Assembly (NCBI GenBank): GCA_965287045.1
Contig: OZ336878.1
Coordinates: 104,222,001 to 104,286,000, forward strand
Direction of reading: 5' to 3'
DNA length: 64,000 nucleotides
DNA from: Carcharhinus amblyrhynchos
Taxonomy: Eukaryota
Part shown: piece by piece, positions 107 to 60,196 of the stretch
Numbering within the stretch: position 1 is the first letter of the stretch
Layout: each line of letters opens with the position of its first letter
Translations under genes and position numbers: made by a program
The notes under the pieces: model-generated
The model's database searches: none
The model's input: the letters and a program-made list of their open reading frames with translations, nothing else
What the model was told of the DNA's origin: nothing

Positions 107-133
107 CAGCTTCTTTCTCATTAAGTTTTATTT
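107..133 (-). CDS. 27-nt micro-exon, type A (EIKLNEKEA)
   Basis: ttttcattaacag|AAATAAAACTTAATGAGAAAGAAGCTG|gtaaat; open in phase 1; similar to 10304-10330. Confidence 0.72.
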
Positions 134-3100
134 CTGTTAATGAAAATGATTCCAGAAACATCTATAAATAATGCATCCGTGCTCATGATCGTAACGAAAA
201 CAAAACCAAATAACAAATAAATTGAACCTTGATTACTTGATATCCGGTAAATAAAAATAGTTACCGTATTTTAAGGAAGGTAAATGACAACAGAAATATT
301 TCTTCTGGAGCATTATTTCAAATACTGTTATCTCGGTACCTGCAAGTGAGAGGTTTCGTTCGGAAATACTGAGTTCTGAAAAAAAAAACCGTGGTTATTG
401 AAATGCTTTCCACTTCCAAATGCCTAAATATCCGTCCTTCCTTTATCAAAATTATCCAAGCTCAAAATGATAACTATTTGTTTTCTGTTGCAGCACAAGC
501 AGTTTCTTGGTAGAATACTCAGTGCCGGTATCAAAGTAAGCATTACGGACTAATTATAAACAATTTTGCTCAGGCATAATGCCCCAGTTCCATTGTAATT
601 ATTAAATGATTACATAACGTATTGAACTAATTTGAGGTGTTTGGAAAAAAAACATAAATATATGTTTCTTTTTCTCCTCAGGAAAGGGTCATCGCTACGC
701 GTGCAGCTACCGATAGCCCATGGTTAGGTATTCATTCTGTATCACCTGCAAATTTTCGTCACAACATATTGATGGAAGAGAGCGAATCCTGAGTTCAATG
801 GTAGGGAATCCAATCAGCCAATACTTGAAAAAAAACACGATCGAAGTTCATGATTGATTTTCGCTGATGCCTACTGAAGAGAATTGTTAATATTTCATCA
901 CACTGTTTCAGTCAACATTATTATGAGGTTTTCAGTCGCCTAGAGAACAGACAGTCAAAATATACGGATCTGAAAAAATACAATGCCGTTTCCCTTCTTG
1001 AAGGAGCAGCAATAAATCAGCTACGACTTCAAAATAATCTCGAAACATTTAAATGTATTCTCAGGCACTAGTCGATTATTACAACTTTTGTGTAAAGTAA
1101 TACATTTTCTCATACAAAAGCAGACAATGTTGGATAAGCTCAGGCGGTCTGATAGTATCCATGGAGAGAAACAGAGCTAGTATTTCGAATCTAAATGATC
1201 ATTCTAAAGAACTGAAGAAAGTCACTAACATAAAGGAGTACGTAATTGGAAACAGGGCAAAAGAAGTGGGGCAGAATAGAAGACCGGGTATAGGTCAGGG
1301 TGGAGGAGATGTCATCAAATTTGTTATTGACGTAAAACAAAGTGGAGGTTCAAAGGGGATGTTAGGGGATTTTTAGCGCAGCACACAGGGTGACTGGTAA
1401 TGCCTAAAGTTTAATTGATACAAGACTCACAAGGCAGGTATCGCGGTATAAAAATGTATCTTTATTTCAAGCAGCGGCTGCCAGGAGTTCATCAAATGAT
1501 TAAGTAGATTTGACATATAGCAGCAAAAATTCTCCGATGAATCTGACAGTTAGTATCAGAAACAGATCAATTGCAGCTTTTTCTTATCAACCAGTCCTGC
1601 CGTTCAATAAGTTTAAGTTAATCATCTTCAAGGTGCACAATTCAAAAATAATAGCTGACGAAAACTCTGGCCAATCGCATTCTAATCCTCAACATAACGG
1701 TATTTTACTAAAATCCAGAAGCTGGCACCTATCTTAGCTGACCCCACACCCTGTTTGCTTAATAGCCGCAGACGCCCCGCCCAGAGTTCAAATAAACATT
1801 CTCAGATTCCCTCTAAGGTCATTGTCCCGTCAGACTAACTCATGATACTATGCGTGAGCACCAGTGCATCTCGTCCGAACAGTGAATAAATCCTATCCAT
1901 GAAAGATGATTAAATATTCTCAGCGTTCTTTCCAGCTGAAACTTTACCAGATAAAAATGTCATATTTCCAAATCCCAAATTTTCTCTTGAAATACGGCTT
2001 TGCCACATTGCCATGTACCATGATGCCTTGCAGTAAACTGCCTTTGGCCAAAGCGAATCAATAATAAAACATTTAAAGTATCAGCACATGTGCTTTGCAA
2101 ACATAATCACTCATTTAAATTAATCACGGCATCGCATATGAGTACATTACTCTTGTTACTTATTTTTAAAGTAATTTAATTTAATGCTACCAGTGCCTTA
2201 ACATTTACTGAATTAAAAATCATACCACTCATTCGAAGTTCGACATGCAGGAATGAAGAGCGTCAATTGTTGCAAAAGATGGGCAGCAGAATTTGATATT
2301 GGGAGGAAATGAACAACCGGGGAAGGCAGCTAAGTGGAGGAGGGTAGGGTTGTACTGGGGCAAGTCAGGGAGCTGAAAACAAACTGAAAACAAATCACAA
2401 AACAGGAAAGTTGTCATTATGAAGGGGCAGTTAACTGCCTAAAGATTTTCAACTCATTGTTGAGACCAGAGGGCTTTAACGTGCCTAATCGGAAGATAAC
2501 ATGCTGTTCTTCCAGTTTGCGTTGAGCATCACTGGAGAATTGCAGCATGCCTACGAAAGACTAAAGGCACCACGGCGGCACGGAATAGCACTGCTGTCTC
2601 ACAGCATCTGGTACCTGGGTTCGATTCCTGGCTTGGGTTATTTACATGTGCCTGCATTGCTTTCCTCCGGGTGATCCGGTTTCCTCCCTCAGACATGCTG
2701 GCTGAATTTGTTGGCTTCTTTAAATTCTCTCTCAGTGTAACCAAGCCGGCAATGGACTGTGGCGACTAGCGGATTTTCACAGTACCTTCTTTGAACTCTT
2801 AATGTAAACCTACTTGTGCTACTAATCAATAAATAAGCGTTAATTGGGCTTGTGGGCTTGATAGCAAGATATTGTTGTTCGTCCATCGTCATTGATGACG
2901 ACCTTGACACCATTAGTCATTTTGAGGCTGGATGCGGTGTGTCCGAAAACGACTGGCCAGACCAATTGGGGCACGGAATTTCCTGGCACATATTGGTCAG
3001 ACTTGTGTAGACACTGTAGTTGTTGCGCTGTTGGTTTTGGACTTGCGCAGCTCGCACTTAAGTTGCTCTTAGGCAAAGCAACTTGCTTCGTAAGCTTGAC

Positions 3101-6100
3101 AGCCCTTGTTAACGAGGCAGCGTCAGGTAGGGAGGTTTTGTGCCAGCGTTTCCCAGGTGGTCGTGTCTATGTCCAGCGACTTCAGGGTGGCCTTGAGTGT
3201 GTCTTTGAAACGTTTCTTCTGCCCTTCATGCGAGCGTCTTCCAGCAAAGTACAGAGTCGAAGTATAGCGACTGGAGGTTTGAGGTCTTCTTGAGGGTGGA
3301 GCAAAACCATCACTCAGATTATATTTAGTCCCACCAATGGAGGAGAGACGATAATGAATGCGGCAAGTACGGAAGACCAATTTGAAGGATGTGCAAGTGA
3401 AATGCTGCTTCACCAGGAAGGAATATTTTCGTCGTTGAATATTGAGGAGGGAGACGTTAAATATATAGGTATTGCGCCTATTGCAATTGCAGGGGAAAGT
3501 GTTGTGTTAAGGGAGTGGAGCATTCCCAATGGCGGAGTGGACCAGGTTGTCAAGGGGGGAAAGGTTCCTTTGGAGTATTGACTGGGAGGTAGTGGTGGTG
3601 ACAGGGGAGGGGGGCGGGAGGGGGGGGGTGCTGGTGGTGGTGGGGGACGAACATGGTAGTAGTTGGGGGATGTGGGAGAAGGGGTGGGGGTGGGGGTGGG
3701 TGAGGGTAGCCGGCGGGGATAAGTGCAAAATATGATTTTTGGTGGCAACATACTGGTTTTCTCAGAAATGGCGGGGGAGTGCACCTGCTGTGTTACATCA
3801 GCGTTTTTTAATTTTTAGATTTCCAGTATCCGCAGCATTTTGCTTTTATAATGTTGCTGTAAAATGTTTGTCCGCCATTTGTGCTAGATTCTTCCCATAA
3901 CGGCGAGGCGTTGAATACATCTTTCCCAGATGTTTGCATTATATTAAATGCTACATAAACAAGATTCAAGTTCCGATTTGGGGAAATCAGTTTTCAACAG
4001 TAATAGAAACGGTTATGTAAAGTGACACATTTTCAAACGTTTACCGTTTTCTTTGTCTTTCAGAAGTTTTTCTGTTGAGGAAAAGATGCAAACGGTAGAA
4101 GTTCTCACGAGTATCACTGCTTCATGAACATTAATAAAATTAATGAAATGATGCTGCTTTTGGCGGAACGTTTTGTATTAGTTGGAATGCAGTACCATTG
4201 CGTTGCATCCGGCCTTCCTTCTTCTCGTATACGTGTGAACTTGCCTGGGTTGGAGAACATCGAAACTAACCAATGCATTCATTCAGGACTATATCATTCT
4301 GGCCTTCGAGTGAAACGGAGTTATGGTAGAAAATTGTAATGAACATTTCGAATGCTTGGAGGAGAACAACAATGTTCATGAATGTGTGCTTCGCTGAAAT
4401 GCCTGCATTTGCTTTGTCCATCCCCATTTACCACAGAGAATTTCGTGGAATGGTACATTCTAGAATAAAAAAAGAACAGCTAGCAAGAATACTTCGGAAG
4501 GGCAGTGAATGGTTAACCGCTCTTCTGTTCATCTCGAGATACACATAAAAGGGACCATTCCTAAACCAAATGCTGTTTTTACAAAACTCCTGCAGTTTCA
4601 TCGTCCTCGCTGCTCAAGTGAATTTAATTTGCTCCAGCTGCCATCTTGACATTTAAAAATCTAGACCAGAGTCATTAATCAAAGCCTTTGGATTTCCAGA
4701 TGAGTAACTTAACCATTCTGATACAGCAGTGCTAATGCACTACTAAATGGATTTGCCACATATGCACTCACCACTGTCCACAAGACTTCGCTTTGTATTT
4801 TCATATTCTGAAATAAATCGAAACGAAAGATAAGACCAAAAGAACTAAGAGCAGAATTAGGCCATGTGGCCCGTCAAGCCTGCTCCGCCATTCAATAAAT
4901 TCATGGCTGACCTTTTCGTGGACTCAACTCCTCTTACGCGTCCGCTCAAAATAATGCTTAGTTCCATCACTGTTCAAAAATCTATCTGTATTTGCCTGAA
5001 AAACTTTCAACGAAGTAGCTTCAACTGCTTCACTGGGATAAGATTATACATAATCATGTGTGGCGAATTTATATGACGAATTTCCGCCTCAAACCAGTCC
5101 GAAGTCTTCTCCCCCGTAATTTGAGGTTATGTTCCCTGGTTCGATTTTCACACGCCAGTGGAAACAGCCTTCCTACTTTTATCTGATCGATTTCCTTCAT
5201 AATTTTACGTTTCTGTAAGATTCCCTCCTCATTCTTGTAAATTCCAATGAGTATAGTCTCAATCTACTTTGTCTCTCCTCATACGTCAAACCTCTCAATT
5301 CCGGAATCAACGTAGTGAAATCTCTTCTGTATCCCACTTGACTCTTTTACTTTTCCTAAAGAAAATGAAATTATTGCGAAGTGCATGCAATGGCATGCAG
5401 CGACAAAAGTCCGGCACAGGAATTAGCTACTAATATAAGCATTGCGAGAAAGGAAATAGGATTAAAGCGCAAGTATACGTTTGCTTTGGCAATGACAGGA
5501 CTTAGCGCATGTTGCATTACATTCCATTTCCCCCCGTTACCATTCAAAAATAAGCAAATTGGGTGCAATATGTAACAGTTCAGTGAATATTTAGGCCAGA
5601 CAAAATCATCTTGATGCTTCATACCCTCATAATTATGAGGATAATGTAAGTCAAAATTTGCAACGAAACTGAGTTGTGAAATTGCTCCGAACAGTGTACG
5701 AAATAAATTGACACGATTTAGACACAACACTTCCTTCTGAGCGAGATGTGACCGGGCAGCTCTTTGTAAAATTTATGCTCGTGTCGTCTACTTACGTTTG
5801 GATACCTGCTTTTAAAATTCCTATGAACCTTGCAGACATTTCGATATATTCAAAGGATATGTGCACTTTTAATTTGAACCGAATAAAATTTAATGACATT
5901 CTCATTGAAAATTTTAGAAATACGGGTAATAGTCTATTCTGAACTTATTGTGCTTAATAGTTTTCAATAACTTTCTTTTCGATGAAATTATTGACAGATA
6001 CTATTCCTGTTTCAAATCTTGAAGTGATACTTGAAATTAGCAAGCGACACTGCAGCATCTCCACTGGATTTGATGTGTTTATATTGCAAGTCGAGCTGTT

Positions 6101-9100: not shown

Positions 9101-12100
9101 CCATTCATCATCTTATACGTCTCAATGAGATCTCCCCTCATTCTTCTAAACTCTAACGAGTACAAGCCTAGTTTATTCAGCCTCTCCTCATAGCTCAATC
9201 CCCTCAACTCCGGTATCAGCCTAGTAAACCTCCTCTGCACTCCCTCCAGGGCCAAAATATCCTTGCGCAGGTGACGATTGGAGGCAGGATGATGAAGCTA
9301 CTCTAGGGAATTATCTGGTTAAAAGAAACAAATGAGATAGGAGCCAGGCATCTAAGAAGCATTGGAAGAGGATGGCGCAGTAATCAAATAAACCACCACT
9401 TCAAATTTCTCTCATCATCGATATTGAATTGAATCTTCAATCTCGAGACGAAATTCCTGAAATATCAATGAAGCACTTAAGTGAAAATAAGTTTTCTGTT
9501 CTTAAAGAAAACTCTAAATCTCCATTTATTTAGCTACTCGGCAAGAACAGGTATTGTTCAAATACTCATTTGGGGACCATTTCGAATATGTGGAATTATT
9601 TCACCTGACTTTGATGTTACATTGAGTCATTTTTGTATACAACATGAAAGAAATACTCAATCGATTATACTTTGGACAGATTTGTTAGTTAGGAATTTTG
9701 GCTAATTTCACCAGTTCAATATTTCTCCTTTAATTAACAACCTTCTCCTGAAGGTTGTTAACGATGACACATGATTAACCTACCAACTTGTTAAAGCGCA
9801 GATAGATAATGTTTTCTTGAAGGATGGGGATTGGAAAGTCAGTAACAATGTAAGATAATAGAATAATCCTTCCATTCACAAAGAAAGGGGGTCAACAACT
9901 CATTAAATCATCGAGGTGAAATTTCATATTGGTTTGGAGGTAAATGTAAATGGCCCCATCGTAAATTTAATGCTGAAGAGTTCATATAATTGGGCATTGA
10001 TCATGCCTATAAAGATCTACAAGTGAGATTCAGACTGTTTCCTGCCTCTGCGCATATTGCTTTTCACTCCTCCACACTACTGATCACGAAAACTCTTAAG
10101 TCCTTTCTCTCTGCTTTTTGAATCAAATGGTTGCCCATTTATGCTGATTTGTATCTGTATGAGCGCGCATGTGCTCGAACATGTATCTCATCTAGTTAAC
10201 AGAAACCTCAGCCGTTTCAACACTTGCAATGTGGAAAACGCCATGTCGCCGAGAAAGGATGACAAGACATCTGAAGAAAGGATGCGCCTTTACGCCCTCT
10301 TACCCTTCGCTTTTTCCCTGAGTTGTATTTCTGCGATCAGTAATTAAAACAGCAAAATATTACCTCAGAATATATGTTTCAGACAAACTTAGAACCCTAT
10401 AAATAGTCAGCCAGCCAGAACATATTCAATTATATTTAAAAAAAAGTCCTGGCTGTACGCTTCAAGTCAACGAGTTGCAATCACAGCCATCAGTTGGTGC
10501 CTGCGTATAACCAATAGTGTCTGTTTTAAGTTGAGTTATTTTGCAACTGCAATTTTTTACTTACATATTCACAACTGTAAATGTCAGGATATAAAGGCTC
10601 CTAAAACCGACCAAAGTCGGAAAGTTGATTTAATTTCTTTGTTGTGTAAGATCGGTGATCCACGTGAAATTGCAGCTCATGCTCATTCGTTATATTATTT
10701 TTAGAATGCATCCCCTAATTGTTGATGTTGTAGCTGGAGCTACCAATAATATCGAAGAAATACTTTTCTTCTCCTTGTTGCGACTGATTTTCCCTTTGCA
10801 AAACATCCCGAAGCCCGTCGCTTATGGAAACAATATTTGGTAACAATTCTAATGCCTCTGTTTGTTATAAAAATACTCTTTTATTTCGGAACCATCTCCC
10901 CACAAACAGCAATAAAAAGAATAGCCATTTGCTACTGCGATCCAGTAATCTGGTTTTAGTTGATAATATTCAACTGTCAATCACTTAACGCGATAAATGC
11001 ATTAAAATCAATGATTTATAATTGGCTGTGATGATGTATTAGGCCAAAAGTTTCCAAAATGGTTCCTGAAAGAAGAGCCAACAAGCGTTGAGTGGTCCGC
11101 AAACTGCCTTATTTGAATGCCTCCGTAGTTCTTAATGATAGTACCTAACGTAGACTCGGAAATAATTCCCTATGGTCCTAGACATTCCCACAAGGGGAAA
11201 CACATCTCAGCCTCTGCCCAGTCAAGCATACAGAGAATCCAAACTGCTTCAGTATGGTCGCCTCTCATTCTTCTGAACTACTGCGAGTAGAGGCACAACC
11301 ACACCAACGTCTTCTCATAAGAAAATCCATCCATTCCCGAGATCAACCTGGTGAACCTTCTCTGGACTGTTTCCAATGCATCTTTCCTAAGATAAGGGGT
11401 CGCTTATATGAAAGAAAGTTCAGGGGGATGTTTGTTTTTTGGAGTTTCCTGAGTTTTTGTAACTTTCTTCCTCAAAAGACAGTGGAAGCAGAGTTCGTGA
11501 ATATTTTTGAGACAGAGCGAGACAGATTATTGATTGACAGGAAGGGGGGGGGGCGGGAAATGTTATCGGGAGTTAGCAGGATTAGCAAAGATTTACCCGA
11601 GTGGCAGAGCAGGCTGGAGTATCCAAGTGGCCTACCCTTGCTCCTAATTCATACGTAAGGATAGTTGTAGATACAATATCGCCAATGTCATCGAGGGAAC
11701 ACATGTCAAATTTCTTCCGTTCGACCATTGTCTGATGCAACAACTTTGCTTACAAAGAAGTTTGATGCGGTATTATATGTTACATGCAATACTTAGCCAC
11801 AAACGTATTCCACTTTTTAACGTTAGATCTTTTTCATTGCCTGCTTTCTGATTCTTTGTAATCTTGTCATAGTGCAATTGATCGAAGTTACTTGAGTTCA
11901 TTGTTGCTACCGAATAATTCAGGGAAAAAGAAACAAAGCTCCCAGTTCTGGTTTACTGGATGTTATTCAGCAACTATAAATCGGTTGCCCTCCAATATGA
12001 ATCTCAGTGTTATAATTCTGTGTATAAAGGATACTTGGCTCATTAAGGTCAGGTGCATTTTTTTCAAAATCGACTGCCTGTTTTGATACTTGGGCTAATT

Positions 12101-48100: not shown

Positions 48101-51100
48101 CGTTATACTTAGAAAATGTAGAAGGTTTGAAGAGAGACACAAGCATTAATATAGTTCTCAGGGTTCCATATATACATATTACCGGGGGTGGCACGGTGGC
48201 ACAGTGGTTAGCACTGCTGCCTCACAGCACCAGGGACGCGTGTTCGGTTCCTGGCATCGGTCATTCTCTGTGTGGAGTTTGCACATTCTCCCCGTGTTTG
48301 CGTGGGTTTCCTCCGGGTGCTCCGGTTTCCTCCCACAGTCCAAAATGTGCGGGTCAGGTGTATTGGCCATGCTAACGTGTCAGAGGCACTAGCTAGGGTA
48401 AGTGCATGGGGTTATAGGGATAGGGGCTTGGTGGGAACGTGGTCGATGCAGACTCGATGGTCCGAATGGCCTCCTTCTGCACTGTAGGATTCTGTGATTT
48501 AAGGTAAAGGCTAATAGACGGACCACTTCAGTTTTTCGGCGAAGTTTGCTTATTAGTTATGTATTTTGAGACAGATTTTCACGTTATTAACATATTCCGC
48601 AGGACTTACCATCGGTTTTGTATTTCGTGTCCTGGTCTGAGCGAGAGCAATAATAAAAATCATCTTAGCCACAATATAAATCGTAGGATCAAGGTTTATT
48701 ATTATTTTTGTCACTTCATTCATCCTTTAAGAATACAGGAGGGAAGAACGATTTATTACTTGGAGAAAAAATCTTTTTACCTTTCTTGGCGTCAGTGAGC
48801 TTTTTTTCTGTTGCGAAACATCAACAATCACTTTGCTGTAATGCCGGAAAATATCTATGATTTGTTTTCATTGGCAATTCTTGATAGTGTTTGCAACCAC
48901 GATATAGAAGAATGTCACTGACGTAATAGCGAAGCACTGCCGCTGCTGGAGGTCAGAAATAAAAAGAATAAGTAAAGAACGGACTGCAAGGACGCTGTGC
49001 CATTCGGTGAGAGTATGGACGATCTGACTGTGATTTCAAATTCACTTTCCTGTCCGCCAAAAACATTTACCTCCCTTGTATTTGAAAAAGCTTTCAAACT
49101 TAGATTGAATGAAATGAATTGCCAAACGCTTTTTGGCGCAGAGAATTCGACAGGCTAATGATATTCGGAGAGAAATAATATATTTGAATCTATATTTCTG
49201 ATTGTTGAATTCTGATTTTAAACATTGTACCCTTGATCCAGACGTGCCCACAAAATTCTCATCTTCTTGCGCTGCATCTTATAAAGTCCCATCACGATAT
49301 TTTATGTTTCAGTGACATCACCTTGCGTTCTGCTGAATTACAATGCATAAAGTATCTTGTACGCGAACATAAAATCGGAACGCTGCTCTATACCCATCGT
49401 AACTCATAAGCGTTAACTAGAACAACTTACGCTGTTTCATTGTTAACATGGCACCATTCTGCCACGCCACACCCAGTTGAATCTGATGTTTTGTTTGGAA
49501 AGTAAGCGATCATCTTTGAAGTTTAATCAGAACAAATCTAGACAAACTCTTTTAGCTGCAAATTTCACGCATCAACTTTTCCACTATTCTGAGGGGTCCA
49601 TCTTAAATTAAAATGCACGTGATCAAAAACAAGTATTTTCACTTTCATGCCATGAGTAGGTCTTGGGTTATAATTTCTGAAATTGGCAAATGTTACGTGG
49701 TTCTGCTCCATAATGCGATGCTGCCAAATTTAAATTAATATTTAAGCATATAACGGTTCGAATTAATTAAAAAGCAAAAATGTTAAAAATAATTCACATA
49801 CATAACAAGACACGTATCACGTGGCTAAAGAGCCCAATCCGTAAGCCGCTCCGCTGAAGACAAACCTGTGAAATGTTTTGGGTGGTAGAATTTGTCTTTT
49901 GATTTGAGATCGCCGGCAATTCTTTCTCAGGTTCCTGTTCGGACCTCCTCTTGTTGTCTGATGTTCCCAAAAAATTGTGCTTTCAATCAGGAGGCCCTTA
50001 GGCCCATTCCGGCAGTTGGTTGTGGACAATGGTGCAGCGTTCCTTTAAAAAAAGAAGTCTACGGTTTTGCAGAAAGGCGATTGCCTTGGTACCAATTCCT
50101 TTTGGGCGATAACATCATATAGCGCAAGTCTATTGGTCCCATCATGATTGAATGCAATTGAAGTCAATGATACAAAACATCAGACAGAACACAGACGGGG
50201 AAACGTCTCCGTCATCGATCTTGTTCTGCAACGCAAGTGAAATCTTGCATTGTTGAAAAGCACTTACCTGAAATTTGTAGCATTTTAGTTAATTCTGTTT
50301 TTTCTGAAAAAGAGAAAATGACCGACTATCGAGTAAATGACACCCTGTTAAACCACTGAGATTAAACTACGACTTTTACTTTGCAGTGTATGGACTCTAA
50401 AAAACAGATGTTGAAATCTGTTATACAATTGCCACGTAACTCTTTAACATTCCATCCCAAGAGGCCGACCAAGTTAACCTACATTTCAATATAGAGATTA
50501 TCATGTCCGCTCTTGAAATTTCCCGTGCCCCAGGTTCCCACAAGGTCTTGAAAGGGCGGACATTCTCTGAGCGTTTTATAATTGTAGCTCATGATGATGT
50601 AGGCACATTTCCTGAGCAAAAATATACATGAAGAATATGTGTCGTATAGATTAATCCAAAATGAACTTATATTTTCCCTGTGGATTTCAATAAGATAATT
50701 ATTATGATCATTATTATTATAACGACGAACACTTAAACATTTGTTTCGATCAACTGATGACAGTTCATCCAGAGTTACAGTTAAAGATGTCAGCTGCAAT
50801 AACATAGCAAGACGATTCAGAAGTATACATTTTTAACGTTGTATCGAATTGTTGCACAAACGGAGTGGTACCGATCCTAGCTATAGGTCACAGTTTTACA
50901 ACAGACAGATATTCTATTCTTCATCGCTCAGTAATTACTTATGGGTTTCTGTGTCGCTGGCCTTTCGTCAGAGGCGACAGCTTCAGGTCTGCCGATCCAC
51001 ATCAAGCATGTCTGACCAGGGGACTCCCCGGCTCAATGATGGATTTACAAGTTGGTAATAAATTTGTTTGCTGCATTAAGAGCATAGCTTCTGTGACCAT

Positions 51101-54100
51101 CAAGTCCCGAGGTTTGCCTTGAACCCAGAACATGCGAAAAAAGAACTAAGAACGGGAGTAGACAATTCAGCCATTCGAACTCACTCCGCCATTTAACATC
51201 ATTATGGCTGATCTTATTCTGGTCGGAAATTCACTTTCCTGCCCTATAGCCCTTTATTCCGCTTTTCATCAGTAACATATCTATCTTTTTCTTGAATTTG
51301 CTGATTGATTCTGTCTCCACTCCCATCTGGGCTAAAGAGCTCCACAGATTCACAACGACCTGAGAGATGTATTTGCTCCTCACCTCAGTTTTGAACCTAC
51401 CTCTTGTCACTCTATGTCCAGAACCTCTTGTTCTAGACTGTCTCACAAGGGCAGACAACTATTCAACGTCCAGCTTCTCAATCCTCTTTGGCATTTTATA
51501 CACCTTAAAGAGATCTCTTTGATTCTTCTGAAATCCAGCGAGAACAGGCCAAAGCCAATCAACTGCTTCGTTGATTTTCATCTCCCATCAATGTTTTCTG
51601 GCATTGCTGTGTGAGTTATTGTTCTTCTTGGATACCTCCCTTTCTCTAAAGTCCGTGACAACACGTGCCATTTGCATTTTGTACGATGTCTTTCAATTTC
51701 ACGTCATTTATTCTCTCAGTTCTGGAAGTGCGCATTTTGCTATTTATAGAAACTCTTGAGTACAGAAGGAGGCCATTCGGCCCTTCGAGTCTGCGCCAAC
51801 CACAATCCCACCCAGGCCCTATTTCCATAACCATAACTACCATGCTAATACACCTGACATTGGGGTCAATTTAGCATTGCCAATCAACCTAACCCGCACA
51901 TCTTTAGAGTGTGAGAGAAAACTGGAGCACCCAGAGGAAACCTACGCAGAAACGGGGAGAATGTGCAAACTCCGTATAGATAGTGACAGGAGGCCGGAAT
52001 TGAACCGGGTCTCTGGCGCTGTGAGGCATCAGTGTTAACCGCTGTGCCGCAGTGCTGCCCTCTTTCTGCTGCACAGCAAATTCCTTTTTGATTAGCTTAC
52101 TCTCCTTTAAACCATTAAGGAATTTGCGCTGTTTAGTTTAATTCAATTACAGATACAGAACATTTAGATACTTTTTTTCCTAAGAAACATTACCTTTGTC
52201 TTTTATTTCAATCTGTTTGTCTGTAAAGACAATGTTAACTTTAATTTAAAGGGTAGGAATCAAACAGACATATTTTCTTTGCAATCTTCCAAAAATGGAA
52301 TAAACATTGCGATCTACAATCTAGAGAAAACAATACTGCATTGTTCAATTTTCTTTGTTATGGACTTAAGCTTATTTCGAATTACTGTCAACATTCTTAT
52401 GTTTAGCACCTCTAATGCATCTAAAAATCAAATTGATAGTCGAGTTCCCTTATATAACATTATCCTGAATATTTACAGCGTGAAAGTTATGCGTTTCGGA
52501 GACTAATTTTACCGATTTACTTCGATATATTTTTGTGCTTTCGCATTACTCCTCACGAAAACATCAACATTCTCGAAAGAATCAGATAACAGGTCGCAAG
52601 AAAGATGTTAAAAAAAAGCAGTCAAAGATTTCTGGGACTAAGTGTGCCTCACACGAACTGTGCACAAAATAATTCTCATGATAGGTGTTGGGAATTTTAA
52701 AGTAAACAGAATCTGCTGGAAATGCAACACAAGTCAACCAGCACCTTTATCAAAGTTCATGCGCCAGTTTCTTGACCTAAATCGTTTCCCCTTTTGACAG
52801 ATGGGGCTTAACTTTTTGAGGGTTTCTTGCATTTTCTATTCGTATCTTTACATGTCTACGTAGAAACGTGCTGATATGGAATGTTTTGCACCACCCACTC
52901 TTCTCCTCAAGTTTGTATTTGGCCAAAGAAGGGATACTGGCTTATTTTGAATTCACTGACCTAGATACTCTGACGCCATTTATATTCATTCCTTTCCACC
53001 CCTTTCCCCGCCCCCCTCCCCCTCCAACCCCCGTCCCCCAAAGTTACATCCAATACTGAAATCAACCAGTTAGTCATTTGATGGCATCAACTATGGGCTG
53101 GATTTTTCCTGTTCTTTGTAGCGATCTGAACAGTCAGGAATCAAGCGTGTTGAGCGGCGGAGTGTGGGGGTGGGGGCGGATCGCACGTGCGACCGATGGG
53201 ACCAAGAGAATAAAATGCCATTGGTTTTAAGCAGCCACAGCATACGTCCAGGAGAAGCCTCCAAATAGACAATTTTGAATATTGGCCTGGATGCCCCCTT
53301 GTTATGCCCCCTGAGCCTCCCAGACGCTTCTCATCATGTGTTTCACACCCGGGTAGTCATCCTCCGCGTACTGTCTACCTTATTCTCCTCCCAAAGTCTT
53401 CTTGCTGGAGGAATACCACCTGACTTACAACACCGTATCTTCTTCTTGCATGACTTAGTGCAGTACTAGTGATGGCCGTGGTGAGAAACTAGAGAACGAG
53501 TGGCCTCCGATTAACCAGCGGTTTTCTAAGGCAAGGATTACTGCTGATGGGGGGCATAAAACAAGCCGCGAGCCAAATTACTGTAGACCAATGTGGCTGA
53601 GGGAATGAATTGAATCAAATGCCATTTCAGTCGATAAGAACAGTTACGTCAATATTGGACATAATACACCGGACCACATGCTTGCTGTAGAATTTCATAG
53701 CACCTGAAGATACAAAGCGTTGTTAAGCCAATGAAAATGTATCATAAATGATGCATTTCTATGAACATAATCTCTATTCTTTCCATTATCCTAGAAACTG
53801 CGCGCTTTATTAACAATAAAACATTTAGGAATCAATGCATTGTGCTAAAATTCCGAAATATTTCTGGCAGATATACAAGAGTGATGGCACAAACCTGACA
53901 TTTTTATACGATTTTCTAGTTCTGTTATCCAAACAAAAAAAAATTGACCCTCATTCCACGATCTTTGTTGGTTGGATGCAATTGTGTCGAAAATCTTACT
54001 GCGTATTTTTCCATGACTTTAAATAATTATATTTTGTATTATCAGCTGGACGCCAGCCAGCATTACAAGTAAGAAAAGATCATAAAGTGTAACAAAGGGG

Positions 54101-57100
54101 TTCTGCCAGATGTTTTAAATTTGATTTACCAGAAAGAAAGTTGTGCCAAGTTGCTTAACCAGCTCGTGGCTGCGTTCGTGCACCTCCTTCCTTTTCATTC
54201 AAGTGATGCTTATGACTCTAGCACATTGTTTGCAATTCACCTGTTCTTTTCAAACACTTTTACAGAAACCGCTGACATGAATTGCTTTTTAAACGTATTA
54301 TAAAAAATTTCAAATGCATTAATTCCAAATGAAGACTTTACATGTTTTTGATGCCTCCGATCTAGATGTTTTCCAACTCTGAGTCACTGGGCATAACTGC
54401 TAGACTCAGGAATACCAGTATTGCGTTTTGAAGATTAGTTCAGTAAACGGAAGGAAGCACATTTGATTTGCATTCGGCCTTCTCTTAAAATGGTCTGTGA
54501 GAAAAAAATGTACTTCAATCCCTCAACGCCTTCCAGCAGCTCAAAGATAACATTCAGAAGTGCAGAATCACGTAAGCTGTCACGAGTGTTTCTCAGAAAT
54601 GTGATTTGATTTGATTTATTACTGTCACATGTATTAGCAGACAGTTAGAAATATTGTTTCTCGCGTGTTATGCAGATAGAGCATACCGTTCATTGAGAAG
54701 GAAAATACAGAGTGCAGAATGTATCGTTCTTGTCATAGCTAGGGTGTGAAGAATGATTAACTTAATGCAAGATAGGTCCATTCAAAAGTCTGATGGCAGC
54801 ATGGGAGAAACTGCTCTTGAGTCGGTTGGTCTGTGACCTCAGACTTATGTATCATTTTCCCGACCGAAGAAAGTGGAAGGGAGAATATTCAGGGTGCGTA
54901 GGGTCCTTAATTGATTTGCCGAGGCAACGGGAAGAGCAGACAGAGTCAATGGATGGAAGGCTTGTTTGCGTGATGGATTGAATATATCGAGATGCGATCA
55001 TTGTTTCAGTGATAATTGTTTCCGATTATTACAAACTAAATGTGCCAGCGTTATATCTTACAGCATTGGCTTATCCAACTTGTCGTAATTGTTGAAAACT
55101 TGAACAATGTTACCTCATTTAATTTTCATTTAATTAACCATGAATGAAAGGTAAAATGAGTGCCTTGTTTTTCAAACGTTTTTCCTTTAAATAGTAGCAA
55201 CATTCCTGTGACGTTGTAAATTGTTCTGTTTAACTGCAATAGGGTGACGCTACGGAGGTCAAATGATGACATAAATGACAGAAATGTCGTGACTTACAAT
55301 GAGAAAAATGTATAGAATGTTGTGAATTTAACAAAATTAAACATAAAGCTTTGTTTATTGAACCCAGTTTGCCCAACTTCAAACAGTGAGGGAAAATTGT
55401 AGAAGTACGCTGTATATTTCAGATGCTATGTGTTTTTCTTTCTGAGTAGATCCCTGAATAGATAATGCAATTTTTTTGAAAGTGGTGACTTCTATATCAA
55501 AGACACCATTCTTATGCTTACCTATCTGTTTTTCAAACATTTGATTCTCTATGAGGAATTGATACATACTTTCAATATAAAATCAAGTAGAAATGCAATG
55601 CTATCTTTTCAGGTAAATCGAGGAGATAACTTTTTTCATGTCCCGTTCCACTTAATCAGATTTATGGAATTATTCTTGATCCGAAATTTTATAGGTTTAG
55701 CTCTTGTTATCTTGCTCACGAAATCACGGAATACCGAAACACAATCAGGAGCAGTAGAATCAACAGTTACATCCAGTTCAACATCATTGTCATAACCCTT
55801 TTGGTAAAAATTGTCCATAAGCTATGAAGGACTGATGCACCATTTTGACAGTAAGAAGTCTCACAACGCCAGGTTAAAGCCCAACAGGTTTATTTGTAGC
55901 AAATGCCACTACATTTCGGAAGTGGCTGTTCCTTCGTCAGGTGGACTTTTGGGCCAGAGTCATCGTGGCAAAATTTAAATTCAATGCAAGCTCTTGGAAG
56001 TAAATTTTTAACGAAGACCATTAAACAATTTTCTATGTGGTAAAAACACAACTCCTTCATTTATTCCCTTTAGGGAAGCGAATCTGTCGCCTTGGCCTCC
56101 AGGTGGCTCCCAACCACAGCAATGTAGATGAATCCCAGGTGCTCTCCGAAATTGCTTAGCAAGCCATTGACTTGTATCTAATCGCTACAATTAAAACAGA
56201 AATAAATGAAAGCAGTCAGACAACACAGCATCGTCATAGACACCGGATATGAAAAGGGGCTACCTAGTCCTGTTCATTCAGCAAAGTACACCATAATCGC
56301 ATGTAGGATTTGCGCCAAAATTGGAAGGTTCGTCTCATAATCCATTCCATCAGTAATCTGGCATAGTTTTACTCACGGAATCATTCCCTACAGACAATGA
56401 TCCAGACACCGCTATCAGCAATCGGCTCTTTGTCCTATTACACCAGAAGGACAGATCCAGCAGATGGGGTGGCACAGTTGGATACCGTTTAGAGGGAAAC
56501 CTCAGCATCGACTGCAGACCGTATCAAAATCTCATGGCATCAGGTCAGTCGTGGTTTTGCGCTGATTACGACATAGCGTCCCCCTTCAGCACAGAACGAG
56601 AATTCCTCTATTTTGAACAGCACATGGAGGAATCATTAAGGGCGGTAGCGGCGCAGAATATATTTGTTTGACGGACTTGAATTCCTATTAACGACAGTGG
56701 CTCTGTAGCATCATTTCAGAACAAGCTGGCCCGTTTCTAAAGGAAACAAACCATCGACGAGGACAGTGGCAGTTGATGAGTGAACAAACAAGAGGGAAGA
56801 TATATTTGACTTTATCCTTACCAAACTGCCTTCCTCAGATGTATCTGTCCTTGACAGTATCGATAGGAGTGAGCATCACACAGTCCTTATGGAAGCAACG
56901 TCCCGTTTTCACACCGAGAATGCCCTCCATCGTGTTGTGTGGTACCGCCATCGTTCTAAGTGCGATTGGTTGCGAACGGACCTAGCAAACCAAGACGGGA
57001 CATCCATGTGACTCTAATAGCTAACAGCAGCAACAGAATCAAGCATCAAGACAACATTTGACAGAGTGACGCATCACAATGCCCCAGCAAAACTTAGCCA

Positions 57101-60100: not shown

Positions 60101-60196
60101 TTCAGCCTTTCGCCTGCAATACTTTCACAGTCGATATGTTCCTAATAACCCTCATGTTAGTGATTTATTCACCTGTATCTTGACACCTCTTCAATT
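107..60196 (-). CDS. Internal part of an unnamed micro-exon gene encoding a coiled-coil-like protein (span of exons listed individually below)
   Basis: At least 20 short exons on one strand, each with pyrimidine tract+AG and GT, length a multiple of 3, open in phase 1, almost all starting with A and ending with G. Spliced reading: ELKRCQDT-ENQMFEKQI-ELENRIKMS-DKQIEIKDK-EKTELTKMLQIS-EKKLTDAKK-DQDTKYKTD-DERLIQLRA-ELQKLREVT-KQQLLAKDN-ELNAALLNQQDK-ENRLSNKTA-EMNKLKQTIQTL-ESQLQDASH-ELEKCEKLQQLS-...-EQKRTIENL-EIQLREKAK-EYENTKRSLVDS-EKLLKDKEN-ELSISERNLSLA-EIKLNEKEA. Confidence 0.75.
340..375 (-). CDS. 36-nt micro-exon, type B (ELSISERNLSLA)
   Basis: ttttttttttcag|AACTC...TTGCAG|gtaccg; fits A/B alternation; alternative in-frame donor at 264. 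Confidence 0.62.
1360..2245 (-). mobile_element. Unclassified ~0.9-kb insertion, possibly a solo LTR
   Basis: Interrupts the PLE; TG...CA ends possible; minus-strand AATAAA about 100 nt from one end; no TSD found. Confidence 0.3.
2566..2840 (+). mobile_element. tRNA-derived SINE (HE1/V-SINE-like)
   Basis: ggcacgg...agcactgctgtctcacagc head, B box gggttcgattcc, same family as many other copies here. Confidence 0.8.
2845..3290 (-). mobile_element. RTE/BovB-like LINE 3' fragment
   Basis: RRSHEGQKKRFKDTLKATLKSLDIDTTTWETLAQ is characteristic of the RTE-clade ORF C-terminus. Confidence 0.8.
4045..4071 (-). CDS. 27-nt micro-exon, type A (EKLLKDKEN)
   Basis: cttttcctcaacag|AAAAACTTCTGAAAGACAAAGAAAACG|gtaaac. 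Confidence 0.72.
4772..4807 (-). CDS. 36-nt micro-exon, type B (EYENTKRSLVDS)
   Basis: tttcgatttatttcag|AATATG...GACAGTG|gtgagt; found where the alternation predicted a 36-nt exon. Confidence 0.75.
4835..5335 (-). mobile_element. CR1 LINE 3' fragment (decayed)
   Basis: Colinear with the intact CR1 3' end at 8740-9270. Confidence 0.85.
7420..8595. mobile_element. GC/CpG-rich non-coding insertion, probably a non-autonomous DNA transposon, inside an old LINE remnant
   Basis: Sharp composition change, imperfect GGGC(A)...GCCC termini, internal C-rich minisatellite-like repeats 7740-8250. Confidence 0.5.
8738..9270 (-). mobile_element. Young 5'-truncated CR1 LINE (ORF2 C-terminus + 3' UTR)
   Basis: Intact ORF ALEGVQRRFTRLIP...TRGHSLKI...FFTQRVVNLWNSLP; (aagaacat)n tail. 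Confidence 0.95.
10304..10330 (-). CDS. 27-nt micro-exon, type A (EIQLREKAK)
   Basis: ctgatcgcag|AAATACAACTCAGGGAAAAAGCGAAGG|gtaaga. Confidence 0.7.
11160..11655. mobile_element. CR1 3' fragment with inverted 5' segment
   Basis: 11160-11395 is CR1 on minus, 11390-11655 is the contiguous downstream CR1 part on plus. Confidence 0.7.
12356..12382 (-). CDS. 27-nt micro-exon, short type B (EQKRTIENL)
   Basis: atctctttctttag|AACAAAAGAGAACAATAGAGAATTTGG|gtagga; resembles the end of EMNKLKQTIQTL. Confidence 0.6.
12809..13051 (+). mobile_element. Penelope-like terminal repeat insertion forming a ~101-bp inverted repeat
   Basis: Arms 12809-12909 / 12918-13018; flanking duplication taatggttctact at 12796-12808 and 13052-13064; CTGAnGA...GAAA core. 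Confidence 0.8.
13640..14440 (+). mobile_element. Highly decayed CR1 remnant with nested SINE (13970-14300, +)
   Basis: gaaaaggtgcagcgaagttt (QRRF-like) and SINE head/tail ccttctgcactgtaggg. Confidence 0.65.
14995..15325 (-). mobile_element. HE1/V-SINE-like SINE
   Basis: Reverse complement of family head (cactgtgccaccgtg) and CR1-like tail. Confidence 0.8.
15680..15703 (-). CDS. Candidate 24-nt micro-exon (VTTFKENK)
   Basis: ctgctccattag|TGACAACGTTCAAAGAAAATAAAG|gtaatt; only phase 1 is open. Confidence 0.45.
15915..16225 (-). mobile_element. HE1/V-SINE-like SINE (second tail type)
   Basis: Same family as 19145-19445, 26255-26515, 37835-38150, 46230-46535, 61800-62095. Confidence 0.8.
16809..16835 (-). 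CDS. Candidate 27-nt micro-exon (GADVLRLQL)
   Basis: tctgttctatttcag|GTGCTG...CAACTCG|gttaag; donor moderate. Confidence 0.45.
17323..17340 (-). CDS. Candidate 18-nt micro-exon (xKQSSY)
   Basis: ctcctttttggttttcag|TGAAGCAATCTTCGTATG|gtaaga; strong splice sites, open in phase 1. Confidence 0.55.
19145..19445 (+). mobile_element. HE1/V-SINE-like SINE
   Basis: tggcacagttgttagcgctgctg head; tgtgtggagtctgcacgttctcccc core. Confidence 0.8.
20161..20410 (-). mobile_element. Penelope-like terminal repeat insertion forming a 101-bp inverted repeat, inside an old LINE remnant (~19640-20580)
   Basis: Arms 20201-20301 / 20309-20409; 11-bp TSD tggatctagat at 20150-20160 and 20411-20421. Confidence 0.85.
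21841..21867 (-). CDS. Candidate 27-nt micro-exon (EPAESSSAN)
   Basis: tattttactaaag|AACCAG...CCAATT|gtaagt; AAG acceptor, peptide not coiled-coil-like. Confidence 0.35.
23560..27070 (+). mobile_element. Decayed CR1 LINE ORF2 with nested SINEs (24375-24775, 26255-26515) and Rex/Babar fragment
   Basis: LDLVL...LGRSEHSMLEF; YRP..TSVVGKLL; QHG..K.KQCLTNL; W.M..NVDKC..IHFG; 3' UTR. Confidence 0.9.
25925..26790 (+). mobile_element. Rex1/Babar-like LINE 3' fragment
   Basis: KKAHHRFYFLRK..KFG...TIESILSGCITAW; tail aataaatc(aaatc)n; related tails at 32620-32800 (+) and 54600-54980 (-). Confidence 0.75.
27615..27650 (-). CDS. 36-nt micro-exon, type B (ELEKCEKLQQLS)
   Basis: ctttttaacttttcag|AGCTCG...CTGAGCG|gtgagt. 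Confidence 0.78.
28024..28050 (-). CDS. 27-nt micro-exon, type A (ESQLQDASH)
   Basis: ttcctatttcatag|AGTCACAACTTCAAGATGCAAGTCATG|gtaaaa. Confidence 0.72.
28550..28895 (+). mobile_element. DeuSINE/SacSINE1-like SINE
   Basis: tRNA-like head, central gttcactaatgtcctttagg-like domain, tail caataaatgctggcc shared with the old LINE family; partial copies at 24375, 47395, 55960. Confidence 0.55.
29210..30450 (-). mobile_element. Old decayed LINE 3' part
   Basis: Reverse complement of the family at 55960-59385 and 40560-42300. Confidence 0.75.
29973..30233. repeat. Two abutting near-perfect inverted repeats (59-bp and 58-bp arms)
   Basis: 29973-30031/30053-30111 (3 mismatches) and 30110-30167/30176-30233 (1 mismatch). 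Confidence 0.95.
31130..32000 (-). mobile_element. Decayed CR1 3' fragment
   Basis: CR1 ORF2 C-terminal/3' UTR similarity; C-run expansion at 31495-31560. Confidence 0.75.
32840..34170 (+). mobile_element. Decayed CR1 LINE (RT to 3' end)
   Basis: NYRPVSL.S.VGK; QHGFV.GRSCLTNL; KF.DDTK; L.LLSLEKQRLREDL. Confidence 0.9.
34393..34428 (-). CDS. 36-nt micro-exon, type B (EMNKLKQTIQTL)
   Basis: cttctttaatctttcag|AAATGA...ACTTTAG|gtgaaa. Confidence 0.75.
34800..38350 (+). mobile_element. Decayed near-full CR1 (esterase-like ORF1 end, EN, RT) with nested SINEs (35530-35860 +, 37835-38150 -) and PLE fragment (36210-36312)
   Basis: VVHIGTND (ORF1 esterase-like motif) at ~34945-34970; KSPG.D.LH; NYRPV.LT; FKFADNTK; CR1 3' UTR. 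Confidence 0.88.
39041..39067 (-). CDS. 27-nt micro-exon, type A (ENRLSNKTA)
   Basis: gcattttgttttag|AAAATCGACTTTCGAACAAAACTGCAG|gtatat. Confidence 0.72.
39485..39520 (-). CDS. 36-nt micro-exon, type B (ELNAALLNQQDK)
   Basis: tttttgttttgataatag|AATTGA...GATAAAG|gtgagc. Confidence 0.75.
39973..39999 (-). CDS. 27-nt micro-exon, type A ([E/K]QQLLAKDN)
   Basis: attatttttcag|AGCAGCAACTGCTTGCCAAAGACAATG|gtactt. Confidence 0.68.
40050..42800. mobile_element. Nested old LINE remnants (plus-strand copy ~40560-42300 inside a minus-strand copy); 66-bp PLE fragment at 40979-41044
   Basis: Same family as 55960-59385; PLE piece flanked by acttttc(c/t)gagatt duplication. Confidence 0.7.
43590..44480 (+). 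mobile_element. Old decayed LINE 3' fragment
   Basis: Ends in aagggcaattgaggagggg aaataaat, the family tail. Confidence 0.6.
44710..44736 (-). CDS. 27-nt micro-exon, short type B (ELQKLREVT)
   Basis: atcttcttcatcag|AACTTCAAAAACTTCGTGAAGTCACAA|gttagt. Confidence 0.62.
44878..44904 (-). CDS. 27-nt micro-exon, type A (DERLIQLRA)
   Basis: ttccattttgcag|ATGAGAGGTTGATCCAACTGAGGGCAG|gtaatg. Confidence 0.72.
45030..47210 (-). mobile_element. Two very decayed CR1 3' remnants with nested SINE (46230-46535)
   Basis: Recognisable CR1 3' motifs on minus strand. Confidence 0.55.
48185..48500 (+). mobile_element. Well-preserved HE1/V-SINE-like SINE
   Basis: ggcacggtggcacagtggttagcactgctgcctcacagc...gggtttcctccgggtgctccggtttcctcccacagtcc...ccttctgcactgtagg. 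Confidence 0.9.
48610..48636 (-). CDS. 27-nt micro-exon (DQDTKYKTD)
   Basis: ttgctctcgctcag|ACCAGGACACGAAATACAAAACCGATG|gtaagt. Confidence 0.7.
48781..48807 (-). CDS. 27-nt micro-exon, type A (EKKLTDAKK)
   Basis: tgtttcgcaacag|AAAAAAAGCTCACTGACGCCAAGAAAG|gtaaaa. Confidence 0.72.
50268..50303 (-). CDS. 36-nt micro-exon, type B (EKTELTKMLQIS)
   Basis: ttttctctttttcag|AAAAAAC...ATTTCAG|gtaagt; consensus splice sites, only phase 1 open. Confidence 0.8.
51140..51590 (-). mobile_element. CR1 3' fragment
   Basis: SRTRG...FKTEVR...SQVVVNLWSSL. Confidence 0.85.
51750..52060 (-). mobile_element. HE1/V-SINE-like SINE
   Basis: Reverse complement of 48185-48500 family. Confidence 0.88.
52194..52220 (-). 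CDS. 27-nt micro-exon, type A (DKQIEIKDK)
   Basis: attgtctttacag|ACAAACAGATTGAAATAAAAGACAAAG|gtaatg. Confidence 0.74.
53895..53921 (-). CDS. 27-nt micro-exon, short type B (ELENRIKMS)
   Basis: ttttgtttggataacag|AACTAGAAAATCGTATAAAAATGTCAG|gtttgt. Confidence 0.65.
55522..55548 (-). CDS. 27-nt micro-exon, type A (ENQMFEKQI)
   Basis: caattcctcatag|AGAATCAAATGTTTGAAAAACAGATAG|gtaagc. Confidence 0.7.
   Translation of the reverse strand, partial: RIKCLKNR
55850..55945 (-). mobile_element. Penelope-like terminal repeat fragment
   Basis: Single arm homologous to 12809-12909. Confidence 0.8.
55960..59385 (+). mobile_element. Old decayed LINE (EN + RT, CR1-superfamily-like) with two nested SINEs (57478-58150)
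   Basis: IKAAFDRVWH at ~58655-58690; KA(M)..DN.P-like and PISLLS motifs; family 3' tail; plus SINE 57538-57905 inside a minus SINE. Confidence 0.8.
60173..60196 (-). CDS. 24-nt micro-exon (ELKRCQDT)
   Basis: tttctcattaccag|AATTGAAGAGGTGTCAAGATACAG|gtgaat. Confidence 0.62.

Follow-up and report, generated by a model that had tools for sequence, protein, structure and literature searches.

A predicted 404-kb micro-exon gene of Carcharhinus amblyrhynchos whose product is probably a soluble coiled-coil rod ending in a B30.2 domain

The window analysed in this study is the whole 64,000-nt stretch C9:104,222,001-104,286,000 (C9 being contig OZ336878.1) of the 2.92-Gb genome of the shark Carcharhinus amblyrhynchos. 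It is probably a 60-kb slice through the 5' half of a predicted gene of 404 kb and 134 exons, whose product would be a soluble rod with a tyrosine-motif tail, a coiled coil and a B30.2 domain. That the predicted spliced gene ending in B30.2 is real appears very likely. Positions outside the window are given as offsets, i.e. the C9 position minus 104,222,000.

The minus strand of the window carries 24 curated micro-exons, listed in Table 1, which together comprise 687 nt or 1.07% of the window, in line with the coding share of about 1% given by the original prediction. That prediction described about 21 exons of 24-36 nt; their strand, phase and open frames were borne out, while the count rose to 24 and one exon has only 18 nt. 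Fifteen exons are 27 nt long, six are 36 nt, two are 24 nt and one is 18 nt. All 24 are phase 1-1 and stop-free, and AG/GT sites are present at the exons named in the original prediction and at both ends of the series. Twenty of the 24 begin with A and end with G, and the residues at the junctions are 16 E, 4 D, 2 V, 1 K and 1 G, so that the proposed predominance of Glu and Asp there (20 of 24) also holds.

Chance controls were scored on splice signals alone, with the reading frame ignored. The scan returned 13 candidates of 27 nt on the minus strand against 4 on the plus strand, and 10 against 3 for 36 nt. When another threshold was applied, the minus strand yielded 25 candidates of 27 or 36 nt and the plus strand 5; the neighbouring lengths of 26, 28, 35 and 37 nt (halved) gave 5-6, and 30 block shuffles gave a mean of 6.2 candidates of 27/36 nt with a maximum of 15. 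The plus strand and the average shuffle, which the original prediction had proposed as controls, thus do not hold a comparable number. Tandem repeats were ruled out as a source of the window exons, which they do not explain, and the listing of long open reading frames (ORFs) contained nothing beyond repeat-derived or unsupported frames.

A tandem paralog lies upstream, about 390-410 kb from the window exons. For 23 of the 24 exons, the best nucleotide match in it, taken with no splice or frame filter, proved to be open and flanked by AG and GT, which answers the concern, raised with the original prediction, that open exons had been sought preferentially. With the 24th partner set by hand, all 24 paralog exons keep AG/GT and contain no stop. 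The introns flanking the paired exons are 68% identical between the copies, with many gaps, and in a neutral simulation 3-6 of 24 exons stayed intact on average and at most 13 did so in 2,000 runs. The ratio of nonsynonymous to synonymous substitution rates (dN/dS) between the window exons and the paralog is 0.35 (bootstrap 0.23-0.53, 205 codons), and identity at the three codon positions is 0.76, 0.82 and 0.63. Over the gene, dN/dS against this nearest paralog is 0.46 and 78 of 78 paired exons are stop-free, in a comparison from which nine exons without a credible partner and everything beyond -131.4 kb were left out and for which four partners were set by hand.

The spliced window chain aligns with residues 295-526 of the catshark (Scyliorhinus torazame) protein model XP_072329363.1 at 69% identity and a score of 758, whereas 200 shuffles of exon order reached a maximum of 303. 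Of the 24 exons, 20 were positioned on this protein by the automatic chain; slot size and the paralog guided the remaining four. On XP_072329363.1, most neighbouring exons are separated by exactly one junction residue when their ends are set by splice signals. Together with the paralog comparison, these data support the view that the window is a real gene segment under purifying selection, as the original prediction of a functional gene supposed. The opposite explanation, in which the exons are the remains of a dead gene or AG...GT matches due to chance, can draw on the weak splice scores of a few exons; the strand and length controls, the conservation in the paralog, the dN/dS values and the colinear catshark proteins make it extremely improbable.

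Outside the window the series continues on both sides. The assembled model spans 404,490 nt with 134 exons, encodes 1,470 amino acids with no internal stop, has a median intron of 2.2 kb and is about 1% coding. It consists of a start exon, 132 micro-exons of 18-42 nt and a terminal B30.2/SPRY exon; 20 of the modelled micro-exons lie upstream of the window (+66,388 to +128,565) and 88 downstream, and about ten of those beyond the window were positioned manually, with less certainty. Every one of the 132 internal exons is a multiple of three and stop-free in phase 1-1, with 70 exons of 27 nt, 33 of 36 nt and five of 21 nt. Four modelled exons, at -46,548, -188,435, -193,472 and -194,023, have GC donors, three of them within 6 kb. 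A division of the region into four separate genes was dropped, as the homolog model P0001 joins -16 to -82 kb with -84 to -267 kb. At -71,867 and -71,055, 812 nt apart, are two identical 24-nt exons with identical flanks, which suggests a very recent exon duplication in an array that is still growing.

The terminal exon (-266,309 to -266,820; C9:103955180-103955691) is intact, in phase 1, and encodes a SPRY domain (PF00622, E 1.4e-9), while PRY (PF13765) was not detected. The B30.2 3' end guessed in the original prediction is therefore present. Among solved structures its B30.2 domain matches BTN3A1 first (E 4e-14), with TRIM21 level at 1.5e-13. The best match of the exon is the Scyliorhinus canicula model XP_038671249.1 (945 amino acids), at 63% identity; this model is colinear from about -16 kb through the B30.2 exon, and its residues 1-940 are 62% identical to our model from residue 531, B30.2 included. 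The two catshark models, from S. torazame and S. canicula, overlap one another. No RING motif was found in 1,064 kb, and the single B-box-like motif is intronic and unlinked; the homologs gave no RING or B-box match in Pfam, whereas similar patterns do find these domains in four of four neighbouring TRIM loci.

Elasmobranch homologs are 49-69% identical along colinear stretches. In S. torazame they are XP_072329363.1 and XP_072329362.1, both named uncharacterized, and GCB74337.1; XP_038671249.1 of S. canicula is named 'zinc-binding protein A33-like', and XP_069775418-428 of the electric ray Narcine bancroftii are named 'golgin A6-like' and 'trichohyalin-like'. Despite the A33 name, no zinc-finger family was found in the five homolog models scanned (P0001, P0046, P0043, P0050 and P0042). 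The teleost 'zinc-binding protein A33' matches were rejected as relatives, being generic B30.2 similarities that are placed elsewhere in the tree described below. The suggestion of the original prediction that the gene might be unannotated thus needs qualification: RefSeq models are predicted in catsharks and the electric ray, although they are split and carry stand-in names. In our view, predicted models of this kind would need transcript alignments to find micro-exons. Likewise, the original prediction recognised no family with a 27/36 pattern; we found no paper describing the present one, in a search that covered few subscription journals, while fragmentary elasmobranch models do exist in the databases. 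Nine Narcine isoforms are homologous, X1 at 49% identity. The eight others, compared with X1, miss internal blocks of 8, 8, 11, 12 and 23 residues or differ at one end, internal blocks being lost in five of the eight, and such differences between models would fit exon skipping.

The rod of about 1,250 residues is predicted to be a segmented coiled coil. It contains 15% K, 14% L, 14% E and only 2% Gly, and its hydrophobic period peaks at 3.50. Single-sequence AlphaFold2 prediction for the catshark protein gave long helices over the part equivalent to the window (258-348, 353-432 and 452-532), with no reliable global fold (mean predicted local distance difference test, pLDDT, 64.5; predicted template modelling score, pTM, 0.23). 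Both the period and the helices agree with the coiled coil read from the window in the original prediction. A 27-nt exon directly follows a 36-nt exon in 23 of 33 cases (shuffle mean 17.5, P 0.02), and such a pair encodes 21 residues, therefore exactly three heptads. In the 23 pairs, positions a1, d4, a8, d11 and a15 are hydrophobic in 78, 91, 83, 61 and 96%, respectively. Since every internal exon is phase 1-1, duplication, loss or skipping of exons keeps the frame.

The apparent start exon has 132 nt (+137,539 to +137,670; C9:104359539-104359670) and lies about 74 kb beyond the high-coordinate end of the window; its ATG at 137,656 precedes AAPVDEYINIG. Similarity to the paralog is greatest from the ATG onward. 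The third copy and S. torazame GCB74337.1 start with a nearly identical motif, GCB74337.1 at the same Met, and D-E-Y-I/M-N is common to the two S. torazame 5' models. No signal peptide or transmembrane segment was found in our model or in the homolog that starts at the same Met, and no Ig family in the five scanned homolog models. The leader, Ig and transmembrane exons guessed for the 5' end in the original prediction were accordingly not found.

On balance, the product appears to be a soluble oligomeric B30.2 scaffold or sensor. The rod would self-associate and present two or more B30.2 domains, which might then bind a cytosolic ligand with avidity, as the tails of butyrophilins and TRIM dimers do. 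Its length and register may be adjusted in evolution by gain and loss of exons, and in cells by cassette skipping. Since no RING is present, the output would not be ubiquitination. Grb2-type SH2 domains prefer pY-x-N, and the D-E-Y-I/M-N motif is a candidate phosphotyrosine docking site that might recruit an SH2 adaptor.

Several points weigh against this reading. The dN/dS values of 0.35-0.46 indicate moderate constraint only. Position d18 of the 36+27 module is hydrophobic in 13% and charged in 74%, and 31 adjacencies of 27-nt with 27-nt exons shift the heptad register; the rod may accordingly have breaks or be a single helix in parts. The supporting records are predicted models, none of them full length. 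Two upstream paralogs have open micro-exons without an intact B30.2, and therefore the rod may matter alone. Finally, the 29 kb upstream of the start exon contain six hydrophobic stretches, unlinked to exons, and the start exon is phase 1-1 and open upstream of its ATG; a small upstream transmembrane or leader exon is possible.

The last point bears on whether the rod is instead the cytoplasmic tail of a butyrophilin- or BG-type membrane receptor whose upstream leader, Ig and transmembrane exons were missed. The ATG exon has a good acceptor and the 14 nt before the ATG are open in all three copies; heptads followed by B30.2 are also the order of a butyrophilin tail. However, only 29 kb separate the start exon from the decayed end of the previous gene, and the 49 minus-strand frames of 70 or more amino acids there gave no Ig or RING match in Pfam, conservation is highest from the ATG, at which GCB74337.1 also begins, XP_072329363.1, with 22 additional N-terminal residues, has no Pfam domain, and the B30.2 domain does not group with the Ig-bearing rows of the tree. 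Such a receptor is therefore unlikely.

The upstream copies bear on a second alternative, namely that the protein is mainly a structural or cytoskeletal rod, like the BG-derived zipper protein, for which B30.2 is dispensable. The nearest paralog occupies +165 to +536 kb (C9:104.39-104.76 Mb), with its ATG near +535.7 kb. It lacks a block homologous to about -140 to -253 kb and has non-canonical donors in two 5' exons, a stop or lost splice sites in its last micro-exons, and frameshifts and stops in its B30.2 exon; it is either a rod-only gene or a recent pseudogene. Its interior (+295,924 to +317,019) contains a recent triplicated tandem repeat of about 6.7 kb with 92-93% identity. The third copy starts at C9:105,372,322, the micro-exons taken as its 3' end stop near +593 kb, and neither tblastn nor a hidden Markov model (HMM) search found a B30.2 after its last exons. 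In the nearest paralog the rod is thus open and constrained along the paired exons while the B30.2 is broken, the third copy and the scanned Narcine isoform show no B30.2, and two reports offer the zipper protein as a precedent (PMC5938342, PMC4046983). On the other side, B30.2 is intact in the window gene, in the catshark model and in a fourth member with micro-exons at C9:106.38-106.49 Mb, the related exons on C16 are stop-free, and the database models without B30.2 may be fragments. A mainly structural rod is a less likely explanation.

It is also conceivable that the three tandem copies form one transcription unit of about 1.4 Mb, in which each upstream copy bypasses its broken end and is spliced in frame to the ATG exon that follows, giving a rod of several thousand residues with a single B30.2. 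All exons, including the ATG exons, are phase 1-1, reading frames stay open in the upstream copies at places where those of a pseudogene would be interrupted, and their decay is mainly in the last exons. Nevertheless, two copies share conserved non-coding blocks reaching up to about 18 kb before the ATG, as for a duplicated promoter, and no database model was found that joins two copies, so that we regard this arrangement as very unlikely.

During curation of the exons in Table 1, window candidates 27061 and 6681, chosen by the automatic catshark chain, were dropped, and the chain matches at the ends of both runs were judged spurious. Candidate 51504, which has an in-frame stop, was rejected, and so were candidates 28770 and 26673. 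A possible 21-nt exon for catshark residues 441-446 was sought at 17.4-27.6 kb and not found. Window positions 8836-9297 (minus strand) and many flanking ORFs resemble the reverse-transcriptase C-terminus of a long interspersed nuclear element (LINE), with near-identical copies throughout the locus, and LINE-like, intact-looking long ORFs lie near +222 to +225 kb and +250 to +253 kb.

Table 1. Curated micro-exons of the window in order of transcription, with the offset of the partner exon in the nearest paralog.
Position	Strand	Length (nt)	Paralog partner	Remark
60173..60196	-	24	473496	first exon inside window
55522..55548	-	27	467094	
53895..53921	-	27	465573	
52194..52220	-	27	463868	
50268..50303	-	36	462710	
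48781..48807	-	27	454124	
48610..48636	-	27	453942	
44878..44904	-	27	450866	
44710..44736	-	27	450695	last base A
39973..39999	-	27	442714	splice scores weak
39485..39520	-	36	440763	
39041..39067	-	27	438595	
34393..34428	-	36	435915	
28024..28050	-	27	431205	divergent; placed by slot size, fills 9-residue chain gap; partner assigned by hand
27615..27650	-	36	430789	
17323..17340	-	18	415315	within predicted non-helical linker
16809..16835	-	27	415028	donor weak
15680..15703	-	24	414218	
12356..12382	-	27	411126	
10304..10330	-	27	406874	
4772..4807	-	36	397159	
4045..4071	-	27	396433	
340..375	-	36	393982	
107..133	-	27	393756	last exon inside window

To place the B30.2 domain, a quick tree with a midpoint root was constructed from 197 rows. 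The two intact C9 exons, six exons from C16 and eight database proteins form one clade with a Shimodaira-Hasegawa-like approximate likelihood ratio test (SH-aLRT) value of 100, which includes the B30.2 of XP_038671249.1. This 16-row clade stands on a long stem apart from the other 181 rows (TRIM, butyrophilin and others). C16:60.4-66.4 Mb (L084-L088, L090, L137-L156) carries a further group of B30.2 exons belonging to this clade, for which no 5' ends were found; at all four C16 loci sampled, phase-1 exons of 27 or 36 nt lie upstream on the coding strand, in small numbers at two loci and in large numbers at the other two. Across the genome, B30.2 exons number at least 150, the majority of them densely clustered on C9:96-112 Mb, C41, C46, C53 and C73. 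The library proteins P0054, P0056, P0057 and P0060 have a PYRIN domain followed by 3-8 tandem PRY/SPRY domains.

A broader proposal, which we offer as speculative, is that soluble B30.2 receptors of cartilaginous fishes constitute a multigene family of their own, a third lineage alongside TRIMs and butyrophilins. Its rod of up to about 130 freely skippable micro-exons would then serve as a molecular ruler, tunable by splicing, that separates the B30.2 sensor from a phosphotyrosine docking tail. If this were true, vertebrates would diversify proteins through combinatorial splicing of micro-exons to an extent familiar from the micro-exon genes of parasites. The present model traces from start to end a type of gene that is split and mislabelled in annotation; its design is common to the sampled sharks and ray, and in the present genome at least two contigs carry members of the family, which has a B30.2 clade to itself. 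The principle of BG and butyrophilin heptad exons is extended to a different unit, 36+27 nt, and to a protein with no ectodomain found. The conserved tyrosine motif, the divergent B30.2, the paralogs that keep the rod without the domain, and the frame-neutral exon array for micro-exon splicing all offer handles for further work.

Other genes share parts of this design. Schistosome micro-exon genes, whose coding sequence is mostly in short symmetric exons, encode small secreted parasite proteins; the likeness to the shark gene lies in the short symmetric exons and implies no homology. Collagen-type genes with 27/36-nt exons encode a Gly-X-Y repeat in phase-0 exons, whereas the shark rod is poor in Gly, as given above, and 82 of its 132 exons contain a stop when read from the first base. 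Proteins P0088, P0093, P0102, P0112, P0122-P0125, P0132, P0137 and P0155 (725-2,602 amino acids) have the same layout of coiled coil and PRY/SPRY, but belong to a B30.2 clade of their own, away from the shark family, and may be a convergent design. P0123 begins with a signal-peptide-like stretch, and the Atlas clusters similar to these long proteins are chordate, one being named 'isoform X51'.

Class IV TRIMs (RING, B-box, coiled coil, B30.2) resemble the shark gene in the coiled coil, the C-terminal B30.2, which butyrophilins also have, and the neighbouring location. TRIM genes of this class crowd C9 96-112 Mb, and four of four ordinary loci sampled have RING, B-box and 96- and 23-nt exons; the coiled-coil exons of 96, 231/234 and 23 nt seen in these neighbours are absent from the shark model, as are RING and B-box. 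Passages of one report describe RING loss and exon shuffling in fish TRIMs, and not the shark design (PMC3137616).

The precedent cited in the original prediction, the symmetric exons of BG and butyrophilin genes, agrees with two reports (PMC5938342, PMC4046983), in which the heptads of BG tails are encoded by 21-nt exons whose first codon is split, a zipper protein is derived from BG, and butyrophilins have Ig domains, few heptads and B30.2. Chicken BG and the zipper protein, as described there, share with the shark gene a long coiled coil from many symmetric micro-exons whose first codon is split 1+2 nt; exon numbers vary between tandem BG paralogs, and some tails have tyrosine motifs. Chicken BG consists, by the same accounts, of a leader, IgV, a transmembrane segment and 13-37 exons of 21 nt, one heptad each, whereas the shark gene has 132 exons mostly of 27/36 nt (only five of the one-heptad length), no Ig exon found and a terminal B30.2. 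Butyrophilins such as BTN3A1 likewise have heptad repeats and then B30.2, but with two Ig domains, a transmembrane segment and few heptads, and the shark B30.2 lies in a separate clade. The shark family is present in databases only as fragmentary models under stand-in names. Judged by its sequence features, the gene is built on the principle of BG and butyrophilin tails, a coiled coil in symmetric phase-1 micro-exons, and is apparently a member of neither the BG, the butyrophilin nor the TRIM family.

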